From: a virus
Lineage: Duplodnaviria; Heunggongvirae; Uroviricota; Caudoviricetes
Reading direction: 5' to 3' (one strand)
DNA length: 64,000 nucleotides
Virus record (IMG/VR): IMGVR_UViG_3300045988_145627
Coordinates: 22,146 to 86,145 of that record
Translations under genes and position numbers: made by a program
Part shown: in pieces, positions 19,765-24,822 of the stretch
How the letters are laid out: each line of letters starts with the position of its first letter
Position numbering within the stretch: the stretch's first letter is position 1
Notes under the pieces: model-generated
Databases searched by the model: none
Seen by the model: the letters and a program-made list of their open reading frames with translations, nothing else
Told to the model about the DNA's origin: nothing

Positions 19765-20055
19765 ATGAGCAATTTAACTTCTTGGGACTGGTGGTTGGTA
19801 CACTATTTCTTAGCGGCCGGAGTCGCATTCGCCTTTTACGTAGGTCAGTTAGTCGTAAAACTGTTGCTGATTAAATTTGCTAGTCATAAACGTATCGATG
19901 ATGGTCTGTGGCGTCTTGGCACCCTGGTGGAAACTCGCTACGGGCAACTTAAGGAGAACGAAACCATTACTATCCAAGCGAAACGATTCACTGCCACCAT
20001 CACAAGAACACCTAGTCGTAGAGTGGCCTTGATCAAAAAAGTCACAACCGAATAA
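19765..20055 (+). CDS. Hypothetical small membrane protein (96 aa)
   Basis: Hydrophobic N-terminus WWLVHYFLAAGVAFAFYVGQLVV. Confidence 0.3.
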   Translation: MSNLTSWDWWLVHYFLAAGVAFAFYVGQLVVKLLLIKFASHKRIDDGLWRLGTLVETRYGQLKENETITIQAKRFTATITRTPSRRVALIKKVTTE

Positions 20056-20833
20056 AAACACAAAGATAAGTATTTACTTACTTATCTTTTATGTATAAGA
20101 TGACTTTGTTTTCGTTGAGACGCGACTGTTTGAACTTAAATACAAGTGCAAACGAAGAAGTCTATCTGGCAGTAGCCTAATAAGCCAAACACCAGCGAGG
20201 TCAGTTTCCAGCCTCGTTACCGAAATGGGACACACTGAGCGAGTGTGATTGCAGAACGCAGGAGGGAACATTCATGTTCCCTCCGATGAAGTAACAGAAT
20301 GGGCGGTTGGTATATTTTCAACTCCATATGACTCCCGGATTCTTAGCCACTGACCGCCCATCCTGTTACGTCATTTTGTTCAATTATGTCGTTTATACTG
20401 GGTTAAAAAGCGGCGACGTAGCCCGGCTGGTATGGTTAGCCAGCACACAACGTTGAGGCCATTACATTTTTATTAATTCTAAGGTTCTATTCACAGAGAT
20501 ACCGGCGAGCGTTGATATGTAACATGTTGGGCAAACATTCAATCGGAGTAGTGGCCTCAACGTTGTGAAGACAGGATTGTTGTGTAGGTTTAACCACTGT
20601 TGCCATTGGTGCCTGTTTTCACAACAAATGATTCCATACATCACATTGTATAAATTACAAAGTAGGTGCTGTCCTCAGAAACATCATCTACTTAAAGATT
20701 TTGCCTTCTACTATTGAGCGAAGTCGAAAGCGTCTGGCACTAACGAAAAGTGCAAGTAGCGGTGCGTTTCCTGGCAGAAACTAAACCGTCGCGATTGGCA
20801 CTGTTGAGTAATAAATACTGGCAGTGCCGAATT

Positions 20834-20908
20834 GATGGTGTAGCTCAGCGGTAGAGCAGTTGGCTGTTAACCAACTGGTCGGTGGTTCGAATCCGTTAAC
20901 CGGCACCA
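20834..20908 (+). tRNA. tRNA-like sequence, anticodon GTT (Asn); acceptor and T stems are imperfect, so possibly a pseudo-tRNA
   Basis: Canonical D-arm gctcagcggtagagc, perfect anticodon stem gttgg/ccaac with loop ctGTTaa, T-loop ttcgaat and 3' CCA; acceptor stem has 2 mismatches and T stem 3 G-U pairs. Confidence 0.4.
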
Positions 20909-21121
20909 ACACAACAGGAAAGAGCATTGAGAACCGCCGAGACTGCACTGTTTGAAGCGTAAGTCCGTGCAAACGTCATACAGTGCTCTTTTCGTTGTGG
21001 TGAATGCGGCTAAGCGCACGCGGGGAAATGGTTATATTGATCCTTTGTGATGTCTATTGGCTCCGTCCACGGTGGATAACCAGCCAAAGGACACCGGGAA
21101 GCACCCGGCACCATAACAATT

Positions 21122-21208
21122 GGAGAGTAGGGAGCATGGTGCTCAAGCGGTCTTGAAAACCGTCCCATTGCGCAAGCGATGATGGTTCGATTCCATTACT
21201 CTCCGCCA
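21122..21208 (+). tRNA. tRNA-Ser (anticodon TGA), long variable arm
   Basis: 7-bp acceptor stem ggagagt/actctcc, anticodon loop ctTGAaa, 17-nt variable arm, T-arm gatgg-ttcgatt-ccatt, discriminator G plus encoded CCA. Confidence 0.6.
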
Positions 21209-21364
21209 GACACAGCGTTGAGCGGTTTGGCCTTTTAATCAACTCGATTAAGACTCCGCTAACATAAACCAGACCGCTCAACGCTGTGATAGACAATTAC
21301 GGCAGACGTTCTTAACCATAGCTTGCTAACATCCTAGCAACACTTTTTTTCAGCGCAAAATTCA

Positions 21365-21388
21365 AAGGGGCTTCGGCCCCTTTTTTGA
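21365..21388. terminator. Bidirectional rho-independent terminator (A-run, ggggcttcggcccc, T-run)
   Basis: Perfect GC hairpin flanked by AAA and TTTTTT; lies between the tRNA cluster and the 3' end of the reverse-strand gene. Confidence 0.75.
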
Positions 21389-21403
21389 AAGCAATGGGCA
21401 AGT

Positions 21404-22738
21404 TCATGCCAAATTATCCAGATTTCTTTTCTTTTGTTCAATTATATTTCTCGCGCCAGAAAAAATTTTACTCAAAATAATTGATTTGCTTGCTCTATTA
21501 TTAAGATGTAACAACGCGCTATAAAATACATAGTTATCTATTTTACTATTTAAAGTATTCCCAAGCTTCCCGTCATATATGCTATTAATAGTATTAAAAT
21601 ATACATGTTCAGGACCTATATTACAAATACCCCTATCAACTCGCTTTAAATAATGTTTAACTAAAGAAATAGCATCTTCCTTATCATTAATAACATAAAG
21701 TCCTGAGCGTTTACCCAGTTTGCTGTTCGAGAGCAATTTACAACCTACAAGCTCACTTAACGTATCTTCAAAATTTTTCAACTCTTTGTCGGCGTTTTCC
21801 AGATAATGCTCAATCTCTTTCTCCATATTACTTATTAGAGAATTAAATTCTGCTCGTAACAAATCACCACCAGGTGATTTATAACTCCATAAAATTGAAT
21901 TGGTAATACGTACTACGTCAGATACTTCTGGTTTCTCTGAATAGTTTTTGTATCTAGTGCAAATAATGCTGTGCTTTATATATTCTCTAACTAATGATCG
22001 ATAATCCCTTTCGAAAAGGGTTTTGACATCTAGTCTTCCATTGCTTGTTGTTATTAGTGTGGTATTTAAAACTGGGTCGCCTTCAAAAAAATTATATTTA
22101 TTTAGTAATCGTTTTAGCTTGTGTGAATTATGTGATGTTTCGCCATAATAATTTAGCCCAAAAATAGCAATTATTAGCATAACATCAGGAGTGATGAAAT
22201 GTCGTAATTGCTCGGCATAAACTTTTTTCTCTTCGATTTTCGAAGATGGAGAGTAAAAACCTTTGTCTATATATTCTAATATTGAAACAATATTACTAAC
22301 ATAACGTATAAAAACTTGATTCATTACAACGGAACCATAAACCTGATGCAAATAATCTACTCTCAAGTTGTTTTTTATTTTTTCCCCTGTGCTAGATGAT
22401 AACTCTTCTTTTACCTGCCCAAGTAGCTTTTCGTGGTGCTCCAGCAATGTTTTAAACCATTGTTCAAATGATGATTTTCTTGCCTCAGTTAATGAATCTG
22501 ATGTTATCTGGACAGCTTTCATAGCTGCTTTCGCACTTTTCTTTGCTTCATAAGCGTTCCATGCTGTAGCACAAAAAGCTGCCGCCGTGATGCAACTGGT
22601 AAAAATAGAAATCCTATCTGCAACATTCAAGCTCCAGAACCAATCAGACGATGAAATCAAAACCACAGATATTACGGGAACAATGAAAATCAAAACAGGC
22701 ATGTATGTACTCGCTCTAATAGTTATTAGTCGAGGCAA
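21404..22738 (-). CDS. Hypothetical membrane-anchored protein, low-GC (444 aa)
   Basis: Two N-terminal hydrophobic helices followed by ~380 aa Lys/Asn/Tyr-rich soluble region; opposite strand to neighbours. Confidence 0.5.
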   Translation of the reverse strand: MPRLITIRASTYMPVLIFIVPVISVVLISSSDWFWSLNVADRISIFTSCITAAAFCATAWNAYEAKKSAKAAMKAVQITSDSLTEARKSSFEQWFKTLLEHHEKLLGQVKEELSSSTGEKIKNNLRVDYLHQVYGSVVMNQVFIRYVSNIVSILEYIDKGFYSPSSKIEEKKVYAEQLRHFITPDVMLIIAIFGLNYYGETSHNSHKLKRLLNKYNFFEGDPVLNTTLITTSNGRLDVKTLFERDYRSLVREYIKHSIICTRYKNYSEKPEVSDVVRITNSILWSYKSPGGDLLRAEFNSLISNMEKEIEHYLENADKELKNFEDTLSELVGCKLLSNSKLGKRSGLYVINDKEDAISLVKHYLKRVDRGICNIGPEHVYFNTINSIYDGKLGNTLNSKIDNYVFYSALLHLNNRASKSIILSKIFSGARNIIEQKKRNLDNLA

Positions 22739-22880
22739 ATATTATATAAATCTCGTTATGATTTACAGACATGTATACGTATTGCTAATTATCACCAACA
22801 AATGATAGGTGTGTACATATTTATCATTTGTTGTAAAATTAATGTATACGCTATGAATACACTAATAATATGAGGTAATC

Positions 22881-23126
22881 ATGACTATCGTTATCTACGG
22901 ACGAGATAACTGTTCATACTGCAAACGTGCGGTCGAGCTGGCGAAGCAACTAAAGGGACATGGCTACGGTGATTATGAGTACATCGACATCACCACTGCT
23001 GGTATCGACAAGGAAAAACTTAGTGAAATTGTTGGTAAACCGGTAGAGACTATCCCCCAGGTACTGATCGATGGCCAACCGATTGGCGGATACACAGAAC
23101 TGGCTGCATACGTCAGCACCCTCTGA
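22881..23126 (+). CDS. nrdH: Glutaredoxin-like protein (NrdH-type redoxin)
   Basis: 81 aa with CSYC redox motif near the N-terminus. Confidence 0.7.
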   Translation: MTIVIYGRDNCSYCKRAVELAKQLKGHGYGDYEYIDITTAGIDKEKLSEIVGKPVETIPQVLIDGQPIGGYTELAAYVSTL

Positions 23127-23131
23127 TTTTA

Positions 23132-23156
23132 ACGGCTCACAGGAGCCGTTTTTTAT
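23132..23156 (+). terminator. Rho-independent terminator
   Basis: aacggctcacaggagccgtt hairpin followed by TTTTT. Confidence 0.75.
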
Positions 23157-23206
23157 TCCCACCAAACTCACACCTGTTTCCCTTAAAATTCAAAAAACAA
23201 CATCTA

Positions 23207-23239
23207 AATGATTCCATACCTACTATGTATGGAATCATT
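23207..23239. other. Candidate recombinase core site: 13-bp inverted repeat aatgattccatac / gtatggaatcatt around a 7-bp spacer
   Basis: Perfect palindrome ~100 bp upstream of the tyrosine recombinase gene; the same 14-17-mer recurs as half-sites at 19614-19630 and 20626-20642. Confidence 0.45.
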
Positions 23240-23337
23240 ACTGAAAATGAGTTACTTTTACTCTTGATCCTATAAGAATCTATGCCTAATATACTGTTTA
23301 CTTATACAGTGCATCGGCGTAACTCGGTGATTGTCAT

Positions 23338-24441
23338 ATGAAAAATAGCTTTGACAGAGCACGCGCTGCGGAGAACACCTCAAAAGAGGCGATTGAGTAT
23401 CTCGAAAGAGCATCTCAAATGCAGGCCGTTATGATCTCCCAGGTCAGCAATGACATGAGATTCTCGGACGCATTCATGTTATTCACTCGCTTATCTCTGC
23501 TGATAACAAGACGTCGGCCAGAGATCGCTGTTCATTGTATTTTGATACATGTTTTGCCGCACATTGCCGATGTAAAAGTAAGTGATATTAATAGGTTCAT
23601 GGTGAACCAACTGGTCAACCCACTAATACTGGATGGCAAAATTGTTATGGGTCGCCGCGTTTTCTCTCTGATGAAGCAGTTCCTCAGCTGGTGCGCCTTC
23701 CAGGGGATGATCGACGTGTCACCGTTAAACGATATGTCACTTAACAAAGTTGCCGGTGGCGCAAAGCCCACACCTCGCGAGCGGAAGCTAACCGACGCAG
23801 AGGTATGGGTGTTCTGGAATATATGGGACTACTTCAATGTGTGTGCTGGTACAAAATGGGCGGCCAGGCTATGTCTTGTATCCGCAAGACGACCTGACGA
23901 AGTACTGCGGGCTAAAAAAAGTGAGTTCAACCTCCAGCGTGGGGTTTGGAATCAAGGCAAGAGAAACAAATCAGCCCGTGAGCATTCTCTGCCTTTAAGC
24001 ACATTAATGCGCACATGCATTGAAGAGTTATTCGAATATGGTAAAGGCAGCCAGTGGCTTGTGCCTTCGAATAAAAAAATCGGGAAAGATCTTCCGATGT
24101 CTAAAGTGGCAATAGCCCAGGCATTACGCCGTATCCTGGAACGACCAGAACTGATGGAGCTTGAGCCATTTACACCACGAGATTTGCGTCGTACTGCGCG
24201 TAGTTACTTCCCAGCATTAGGCATAAGCCAGGAGGTATCACGTAAAATCATGAACCACAGTCTTGAGGGGATAGATCGGGTCTACGACCGGCACGATTAT
24301 ATGGACGAGATGCGAGACGCCTTAGAAAGTTTCTCGACGTACATCGCATCAATCGTAGAGCAACCGGATTTAGACGAAATTGACCACAAATTCAAGGGAG
24401 ATCGTCTATCGACAGAGCTTATTCGTGTAAATTTTTCATAG
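23338..24441 (+). CDS. int: Tyrosine recombinase / integrase
   Basis: C-terminal catalytic boxes LVSARRPDEV, FTPRDLRRTARS, NHSLEGIDRVYDRHDYMDE (R..H-x-x-R..Y pattern). Confidence 0.75.
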   Translation: MKNSFDRARAAENTSKEAIEYLERASQMQAVMISQVSNDMRFSDAFMLFTRLSLLITRRRPEIAVHCILIHVLPHIADVKVSDINRFMVNQLVNPLILDGKIVMGRRVFSLMKQFLSWCAFQGMIDVSPLNDMSLNKVAGGAKPTPRERKLTDAEVWVFWNIWDYFNVCAGTKWAARLCLVSARRPDEVLRAKKSEFNLQRGVWNQGKRNKSAREHSLPLSTLMRTCIEELFEYGKGSQWLVPSNKKIGKDLPMSKVAIAQALRRILERPELMELEPFTPRDLRRTARSYFPALGISQEVSRKIMNHSLEGIDRVYDRHDYMDEMRDALESFSTYIASIVEQPDLDEIDHKFKGDRLSTELIRVNFS

Positions 24442-24822
24442 AGACTTTATGGCCTCAACAACCTTTTGTGATGCGCCTTTCTCTTTACCGAATCGCTCGT
24501 TATATGCAGCAAGAACCTGTTTTTCGTCCTCGTTAAGAGGAGCAGTGCCTTCTTTGTATAAAAATGCTGCGAGTTCGGGTTGGCGTTCTTCCAGCACCAT
24601 CATCATAAGACGACTTGGCTCAATACCCAGTGCCAGCGCCAGCGGACGAACCTTATCGATAGGCAAAGGAATTTTGCCGCTTTTAATTAAAGAAAGGTTG
24701 TTGGCGTTTTTATACCCAATTGTTTTGGCTATCTGGGCCTGGCTCATAGGTGAGGATTCAATCAACCCTGCGATAAAAGCAGCGTAGCGACTTTCTATAA
24801 ATTCAATCTTGTTGTCAGACAT
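24436..24822 (-). CDS. Helix-turn-helix transcriptional regulator (XRE/Cro-CI type)
   Basis: HTH segment SQAQIAKTIGYKNANNLSLIKSGK; 128 aa; convergent with int and divergent from a small + strand ORF. Confidence 0.65.
   Translation of the reverse strand: MSDNKIEFIESRYAAFIAGLIESSPMSQAQIAKTIGYKNANNLSLIKSGKIPLPIDKVRPLALALGIEPSRLMMMVLEERQPELAAFLYKEGTAPLNEDEKQVLAAYNERFGKEKGASQKVVEAIKSL

Follow-up and report, generated by a model that had tools for sequence, protein, structure and literature searches.

The window analysed here, a stretch of 64,000 nucleotides from a caudoviricete genome (IMG/VR record IMGVR_UViG_3300045988_145627, positions 22,146 to 86,145), carries on its minus strand an AT-rich gene set between tRNA genes on one side and a glutaredoxin gene, followed by a tyrosine integrase gene, on the other. 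A first-pass annotation, made from the letters of the sequence, took this gene for a candidate abortive-infection or exclusion determinant in a cargo hot-spot and saw no recognisable motif in its product. We found that the protein is a new, divergent member of the known, mechanistically unsolved AbiC/AbiP group, and that the gene occupies a sharply bounded slot in which sister elements hold other cargo. The features of the locus are collected in Table 1.

The gene and its family

The maximal open reading frame (ORF) on the minus strand, 21404-22738, was found as annotated, with 444 aa counted from a TTG at 22738. Its homologues and the coding sequence (CDS) in RefSeq begin at the ATG at 22702, 12 codons downstream, and this is the probable real start, which gives a product of 432 aa with the N-terminus MPVL. 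The low GC content claimed for the gene was borne out: it is 32.9% compared to 45.2% in the whole window, and the composition profile falls to 0.31 exactly over the gene.

The protein had a single Pfam hit, to putAbiC (PF16872, 'putative phage abortive infection protein') at aa 144-219 of the 444-aa ORF; weak as this match is, the statement that no motif could be recognised does not hold. The same family was matched at E<=1e-3 by 6 of 24 close relatives and by 51 of 68 wider, mostly full-length members (best 1.2e-13). When the phage-plasmid clade of the protein (A1) was compared by hhalign with 28 PF16872-annotated Enterobacterales proteins (A6), the probability was ~100% with an E-value of 2e-38 over 372 columns, which span the membrane hairpin almost to the C-terminus. 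A profile match of this length argues that the protein belongs to the putAbiC family over its full length, as a very divergent member, and is more than the carrier of an 80-residue motif. The remote-homology search that the first-pass annotation had recommended thus led to the AbiC/AbiP group.

The PADLOC model of AbiC matched 9 of the 68 wider members (best 1.3e-6) and that of AbiP matched 6 of them. Because these hits were confined to distant members, the link to the lactococcal models is transitive. One bridging member, P0054, matched PADLOC AbiC at 8.6e-6 and the window allele by tblastn at 2e-8; it belongs to a large set of Enterobacterales proteins of 430-470 aa annotated as 'putative phage abortive infection protein', and tblastn from it reached Enterobacterales plasmids only. 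The close relatives of the window protein are all enterobacterial 'hypothetical proteins', and PHROGs places it in a family without assigned function (phrog_18168). When 1.84 billion representatives were searched with a profile, just 90 proteins came up, and therefore the branch is small. NCBIfam gave only noise for the protein, tblastn against 50,697 phage records found nothing, and a literature search on PF16872 found no report.

A distant putAbiC branch, located on small plasmid-like contigs (L016 3140-6241, L017 and L018), had a conserved co-directional ORF of 542 aa placed 25 nt upstream. This ORF had no Pfam hit, and a HEPN/Toprim gene and an Rpn-family gene were nearby. The branch may represent a two-gene variant of the system.

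The two N-terminal membrane helices noted in the first-pass annotation are also predicted from the hydropathy, the charge pattern and the AF2 helices. Segment 1 is strongly hydrophobic and segment 2 moderately so, a pattern kept across alleles. The loop between them, of 7-14 residues, is acidic, and basic residues (+3) follow segment 2; this charge pattern favours an N-in/C-in membrane hairpin with a predicted cytoplasmic domain. The AlphaFold model (pLDDT 83, pTM 0.72) is almost all-helical, with helices at residues 2-18, 20-23 and 27-102, and helix 2 runs on as a 75-residue stalk. TM2 continues into an Ala/Ser/Lys-rich juxtamembrane helix to ~aa 85, the most conserved region of the family, and from residue 61 onward the protein is enriched in L, S, K, I, N, E and Y. 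In the wide family, H90 and Y134 are nearly invariant. A cleavable signal peptide was ruled out, because the sequence has neither a basic n-region nor an AxA-type site. Fold searches of solved and viral structures gave nothing meaningful.

Conservation declines along the protein. Between alleles, identity is 49-75% at aa 31-85 (TM2 and the juxtamembrane helix ATAWxAYEAxxSAKAA), 32-45% at aa 86-215 (the AbiC core) and, for most alleles, 18-27% at aa 216-432; column entropy is lowest at aa 41-80 and highest in the C-terminal half. Because of this fall from the N- to the C-terminus, we propose that the C-terminal part serves in recognition, and the pattern as a whole suggests a conserved membrane/stalk module joined to a variable recognition part.

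In comparison with its 94% allele (L019), the gene had a dN/dS of 0.47, whereas the values for the glutaredoxin (grx), integrase (int) and HTH genes of the same pair were 0.02-0.07. The gene is under approximately tenfold less constraint than its backbone neighbours, and its evolution is relaxed or diversifying. Its dS was 0.05 compared to 0.11-0.15 for these neighbours, and therefore the two elements came to share the cassette later than the backbone. Half of all differences to L019 are found in codons 299-329, synonymous and non-synonymous alike, and this clustering (Table 1) indicates a recombination tract. In one of the ~30% alleles, the first ~257 nt of the gene still show nucleotide homology; therefore exchange breakpoints also lie inside the gene.

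The cassette slot and its flanks

The region around the gene matched three Escherichia phages (CMS-2020a, Cyrano and PhiR41_1) at 95-98% and, at 81%, Salmonella phage SSU5; it also matched ~110-kb non-mobilizable IncFIB-type E. coli plasmids. Other neighbours were a DNA ligase, a CobT-like protein and an HTH regulator of 128 aa (24436-24822). Judging from the phage and plasmid matches and from these genes, the window is part of an SSU5/pHCM2-like phage-plasmid of E. coli. The flanks were largely as first annotated, with tRNA genes, a divergent neighbour and an integrase gene; only the name nrdH has to be given up for the neighbour, which RefSeq places in the 'GrxA family' and which is not strictly NrdH.

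By blastn, backbone homology to relatives with other cargo ends at 21384-21388 and restarts at 22869-22891, at the start of grx. These breakpoints define a replaceable cassette, composed of the gene and its 178-bp upstream region, in which the AbiC-like ORF is the sole long ORF. In the E. coli elements L004 and L020-L023, the flanks are 96-99% identical and the slot interior differs. The occupants are always on the minus strand, opposite in direction to the genes at either side, and have a GC content of 0.29-0.36 compared to 0.44-0.51 in the flanks. The hot-spot supposed in the first-pass annotation is thus a cassette-exchange slot with sharp edges, holding divergent alleles, an AbiGi pair or an unknown low-GC gene in sister elements (Table 1), and the comparison of the tRNA-int interval that had been advised showed variable occupancy between conserved flanks. 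The two proteins of 296 and 302 aa are 59% identical to each other and had no hit in Pfam or PADLOC; by position, their family is another candidate defence gene. The 302-aa slot occupant of CMS-2020a was considered as a truncated AbiC-like relative and was found to be unrelated. In phage Cyrano, the slot has nothing on the minus strand.

The first-pass annotation had named universal presence with uniform GC as a finding that would speak against its proposal; instead, the gene was present in a minority of related elements and deviated in GC. A family member was found in ~132 PLSDB plasmids, compared to ~933 with the neighbouring integrase. The ~30% alleles occur at the equivalent position in elements of Salmonella, Klebsiella and Enterobacter, opposite the phoH-grx operon. 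At >=97% nucleotide identity, the window allele was present in 6 of 5426 complete E. coli genomes and was plasmid-borne every time. Chromosomal homologues are isolated genes at variable spots, beside IS110, GIY-YIG or AAA_15/AAA_21 ATPase genes. Some relatives carry a YafO-family toxin gene with an upstream ORF of ~200 aa between grx and int (L004 3994-5022 on the plus strand, L007 372-1409 and L008 1-912), and therefore this interval is a second variable spot.

At the left edge of the slot lies a hairpin with the stem AAAGGGGC-TTCG-GCCCCTTT. A simple terminator scan missed it; folding confirmed it on the two strands at -15.0 and -17.1 kcal/mol, the T-run being better on the plus strand. The tRNA-Ser region and the hairpin are conserved in L004 despite its different cargo, and divergence starts immediately past the hairpin. 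On sequence comparison, the terminator is a feature of the tRNA backbone, common to whichever cargo sits there. The description of a bidirectional terminator was thus correct as to folding on both strands, and its assignment to the AbiC-like gene was not.

The palindrome reported in the upstream region is real and larger than described. It has perfect 12-bp arms, CAACAAATGATA and TATCATTTGTTG, at 22796-22807 and 22822-22833 with a 14-nt spacer, or alternatively 19-nt arms with 84% complementarity; 12-bp arms were reached in 1 of 2000 shuffles of the 178-bp intergenic region. It is not distinct to the promoter of this gene, since its core at 22805-22824 is a degenerate copy of ATAGGT-N8-ACCTAT, which occurs 12 times in the window at <=2 mismatches compared to 1.44 expected and a shuffle maximum of 4. 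The consensus of the copies is a perfect 20-bp palindrome, ATAGGTAAGTACTTACCTAT. All 12 are intergenic; 11 are placed 4-178 nt upstream of plus-strand ORF starts, and the remaining one is downstream of an ORF, ahead of the tRNA cluster.

Every examined relative with the divergent intergenic region had a copy of the motif between the cargo and grx/phoH, whatever the cargo was, and the copy was kept where the rest of that region had diverged past blastn detection. Phage Cyrano has no divergent intergenic region and no copy there. Therefore, a private operator of the AbiC-like gene was rejected, since 12 such sites are dispersed over the window and this one is there under any cargo. The motif is predicted to act in regulation across the whole element, and in the simplest reading it is the operator of a dimeric regulator; the copies look like the operator set of a master regulator; a literature search on the SSU5 operator or repressor gave nothing relevant. 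The TGTACA centre is a possible -35 for predicted promoter-like sites in both directions. Of the two candidate promoters of the gene, the better conserved -10 is the TATAAT at 22741-22746, the area of which is conserved among AbiC-like cassettes.

Some side observations concern the flanks. The 'tRNA-Asn' call at 20834-20908 is a chimera: compared with sister elements, a deletion occurred between the GGTTCGAATCC T-arms of tRNA-Asn and tRNA-Thr (together with tRNA-Tyr where present), affecting 20834-20908 and 20909-21121, and took the 3' end of tRNA-Asn and most of tRNA-Thr. Because a mismatched acceptor stem was left, this tRNA may be defective. Between the tRNA genes, 20976-21144 on the plus strand gave a sub-threshold Rfam match to the small RNA STnc100 (43.4 bits against a gathering score of 47, E 2.4e-7), and 20985-21113 is 86-89% identical to an unannotated tRNA-adjoining region of P1-like phages. 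In the grx-int intergenic region, a 13-bp inverted repeat, AATGATTCCATAC-N7-GTATGGAATCATT at 23207-23239, was kept in every relative compared and may be an integrase-related or regulatory site.

Table 1. Features of the AbiC-like locus in the window and occupants of the slot in related elements
Feature	Position	Strand	Remarks
AbiC-like CDS	21404..22702	-	432 aa, probable start; stop codon 21404-21406; phrog_18168 1.4e-185
TM1 (predicted), codons 1-19	22646..22702	-	Kyte-Doolittle 2.36; AF2 helix 2-18
TM2 (predicted), codons 27-49	22556..22624	-	Kyte-Doolittle 1.38, basic stretch next; AF2 helix 27-102
putAbiC (PF16872) core match, codons 132-207	22082..22309	-	Pfam, 22.0 bits, E 2.3e-4
Hypervariable C-terminal half, codons 216-432	21407..22057	-	low inter-allele identity, highest column entropy
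Mosaic patch, codons 299-329	21716..21808	-	19/90 nt differ from 94% allele vs ~1 per 90 nt elsewhere
Replaceable cassette (gene + 178-bp upstream region)	21389..22880		homology breakpoints in relatives
Hairpin terminator	21365..21388	both	GC-rich, A-run and T-run flanks; left slot edge
Palindrome, 38 bp, centre TGTACA	22796..22833		overlaps candidate -35 elements of both divergent promoters
20-bp motif copies (starts)	2532, 6753, 12138, 16707, 20066, 22805, 34269, 39745, 43252, 47951, 57503, 59716		
TATAAT, candidate -10 of cargo promoter	22741..22746	-	predicted; outside palindrome, upstream of ATG
Alternative promoter	-35 22812-22817, -10 22788-22793	-	predicted; inside palindrome
tRNA-Asn	20834-20908	+	upstream on the plus strand
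tRNA-Ser (UGA)	21122-21208	+	final backbone gene ahead of cargo slot
Glutaredoxin gene, 81 aa	22881-23126	+	backbone, divergent from AbiC-like gene, right slot edge; Pfam Glutaredoxin 6.5e-11
Tyrosine integrase	23338-24441		beyond glutaredoxin gene
Slot in L001			same allele
Slot in L005			50% allele
Slot in L002, L020, L022			~30% alleles; hmmsearch 1e-176 to 1e-180
Slot in L004	2571-3479 of L004	-	unrelated gene family, 302/296 aa with L021; GC 0.29-0.33
Slot in L021	1044-1934 of L021	-	same family as in L004
Slot in L023 (NZ_OZ501614.1)	4740-6799 of L023	-	AbiGi homologue (PADLOC 5e-47) and 403-aa partner without PADLOC hit

Abortive infection as the probable function, and its alternatives

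We consider it fairly probable that the gene serves in anti-phage defence of the abortive-infection type, through a single membrane-anchored protein of the AbiC/AbiP group, and that it is carried as an exchangeable low-GC cassette. The homology to AbiC/AbiP, the architecture of the protein and the context of the slot support this predicted function, in line with the first-pass annotation, and of the two modes it offered, abortive infection would, by homology, be preferred to exclusion. A structural, replication or lysis role was rejected because the gene is absent or replaced in elements that are otherwise 96-99% identical, and no homology to structural or replication proteins was found.

In such a system, the two-helix hairpin would anchor the protein in the inner membrane with the helical domain of ~380 aa in the cytoplasm. 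The fast-evolving C-terminal half might sense a product of the superinfecting phage, in the way that a major tail protein triggers AbiP. Next, the AbiC core and the conserved module close to the membrane would stop the infection after DNA entry, perhaps through a loss of late protein production and/or host viability, as is reported for AbiC and AbiP. The clonal population bearing the phage-plasmid would thereby be protected.

Several observations weigh against abortive infection. The Pfam score of the protein itself is marginal (22.0-22.1 bits against a curated cut-off of 22, E 2e-4), and PADLOC at E<=1 recognised neither the window protein nor any of its 23 closest relatives. The second membrane segment is just moderately hydrophobic, and the fold searches gave no match pointing to an enzymatic or nucleic-acid-binding activity. 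Should a lysogeny repressor bind the palindrome as its operator, and transcription start from the promoter that overlaps it, the gene might not be expressed in the plasmid state. The mechanism of AbiC is unsolved, and AbiC and AbiP appear to be mechanistically different. Moreover, an AbiC-like protein of Lactococcus with 38% identity to AbiC did not protect against the phages tested (PMC11381338), and therefore membership in the family is no guarantee of activity.

This inactive homologue also lends some weight to the idea that the name AbiC is misleading and that the gene encodes an accessory membrane protein outside defence, such as a maintenance or addiction toxin, an envelope or fitness factor, or a factor of the element's own lytic cycle. 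The 'putative' family name rests on one lactococcal protein, toxin-antitoxin modules are also present in the neighbourhood, and the operator-like palindrome is common to ~11 operon starts, which could mean co-regulation with phage functions. However, the gene is dispensable, being absent from phages Cyrano and CMS-2020a and from most related plasmids, and in the same slot it is replaced by an AbiG-type module. Its high dN/dS and hypervariable C-terminal half are typical of genes in conflict with phages. The cassette has no partner antitoxin ORF, and Rfam and tandem-repeat scans of 20000-23500 revealed no RNA partner or repeat array like those of ToxIN/AbiQ-type RNA antitoxins. On balance, we regard a role outside defence as unlikely.

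A superinfection-exclusion protein, which would sit in the inner membrane and block the injection or entry of the DNA of incoming phages at the envelope, would agree with the membrane anchoring, with a location of the prophage or moron type, with the membrane-proximal module being the most conserved part of the family, and with the lack of any detected catalytic or nucleic-acid-binding fold. Yet the homology leads to AbiC and AbiP, which leave DNA entry unblocked and affect later steps, and the analogue PdpSau likewise acts after DNA entry. By the positive-inside rule, most of the protein is predicted to lie in the cytoplasm, its short loop being all that faces the periplasm, and no known exclusion (Sie) family appeared among the Pfam, PHROGs, NCBIfam and PADLOC results. 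Exclusion is thus a doubtful explanation, and abortive infection is kept as the preferred one. A decaying, AT-rich hitch-hiker ORF without selected function is very improbable, for in spite of the low GC, the rarity of the allele in complete E. coli genomes and a dN/dS far above that of the neighbouring genes, alleles from four genera, some with as little as 30% identity, still have full-length intact ORFs of 394-438 aa, 31 columns are invariant with a strongly conserved N-terminal module, dN/dS is still <1, and the AlphaFold model is confident.

A more far-reaching proposal, which we put forward as a speculation with small chances, is that SSU5-like phage-plasmids possess a dedicated exchange site for defence cassettes, each cassette with its own diverged copy of the 20-bp operator that also stands ahead of about a dozen operons of the element. 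If this were true, the AbiC-like family would be a membrane-acting abortive-infection effector of Gram-negative hosts with a swappable C-terminal sensor, and through expression under the master regulator of the element, defence would be switched together with the lysis-lysogeny state. The exchange site would reach from the tRNA terminator to the start codon of grx, and its effector would retain the conserved TM-hairpin and the stalk rich in Ala.

Clinical E. coli, Klebsiella, Salmonella, Enterobacter and Shigella widely carry phage-plasmids of the SSU5/pHCM2 type. In 1,227 SSU5-type contigs, a DefenseFinder survey reported AbiH, PrrC, PD-T4-3 and others but not AbiC, which is consistent with the AbiC-like branch being invisible to current models. 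Together with the PADLOC miss, this means that ~1/7 of the related plasmids may carry an unrecognised candidate defence gene, with a bearing on phage therapy against strains that carry SSU5-like elements. The sharply bounded slot and the dispersed 20-bp operator-like sites were less expected by-products of the analysis. The slot is convenient for mining further systems, for example the 296/302-aa occupant, and a member from E. coli that has natural chimeras, and in which the N-terminal module is conserved and the C-terminal half hypervariable, would be a tractable model for the AbiC/AbiP group.

Relation to known systems

Lactococcus lactis AbiC (Prf), the reference for PF16872, is approached by the window protein through the core match at aa 132-207 and through full-length profile homology to the Enterobacterales members of the family. 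Each is carried on a mobile element, the window protein as a putative single-gene system, and as in AbiC, its predicted two-helix anchor is followed by an extramembrane helical domain. AbiC has ~344 aa; it reduces production of the major capsid protein and leaves DNA replication unaffected. The window protein is longer, with 432 aa compared to the 306 positions of the PADLOC AbiC model, and its C-terminal ~200 aa are clade-specific and hypervariable. The similarity is at the detection limit, and the AbiC model in PADLOC does not hit the window protein. The carriers differ as well, a dairy plasmid for AbiC and a phage-plasmid in a Gram-negative host for the window gene. In AbiC, the N-terminal anchor of two TM helices precedes the extramembrane domain (PMC13064643).

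Lactococcal AbiP, grouped with AbiC as AbiC/P, is likewise a membrane-anchored single protein with a cytoplasmic domain, and its PADLOC model matched several of the wider family members but not the window protein directly. AbiP requires its membrane anchor and binds RNA or single-stranded DNA (ssDNA). It is triggered by a phage major tail protein and then becomes toxic (PMC12184496). This sequence of a structural protein as trigger followed by toxicity serves as the mechanistic template for our proposal. In contrast to the predicted two-helix hairpin of the window protein, AbiP has one TM helix and a nucleic-acid-binding domain; in the window protein, neither nucleic-acid binding nor an OB-like fold was seen.

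PdpSau, a membrane-anchored, AbiP-like protein encoded by Sa2 prophages, causes abortive infection in Staphylococcus aureus (PMC10127798), where it acts on unrelated lytic phages. Like the window gene, it is a prophage accessory gene at a variable cargo position, with a membrane anchor and a cytoplasmic domain. It differs in that its membrane helix is single and its C-terminus is OB-like and positively charged, and its resemblance to AbiP is structural only.

The AbiG (AbiGi/AbiGii) cassette of NZ_OZ501614 shares the slot, the strand, the flanks and the low GC (0.33-0.34) with the window gene, whereas it consists of two genes, an AbiGi homologue and an uncharacterised 403-aa protein, both of which are unrelated in sequence to the AbiC-like gene.

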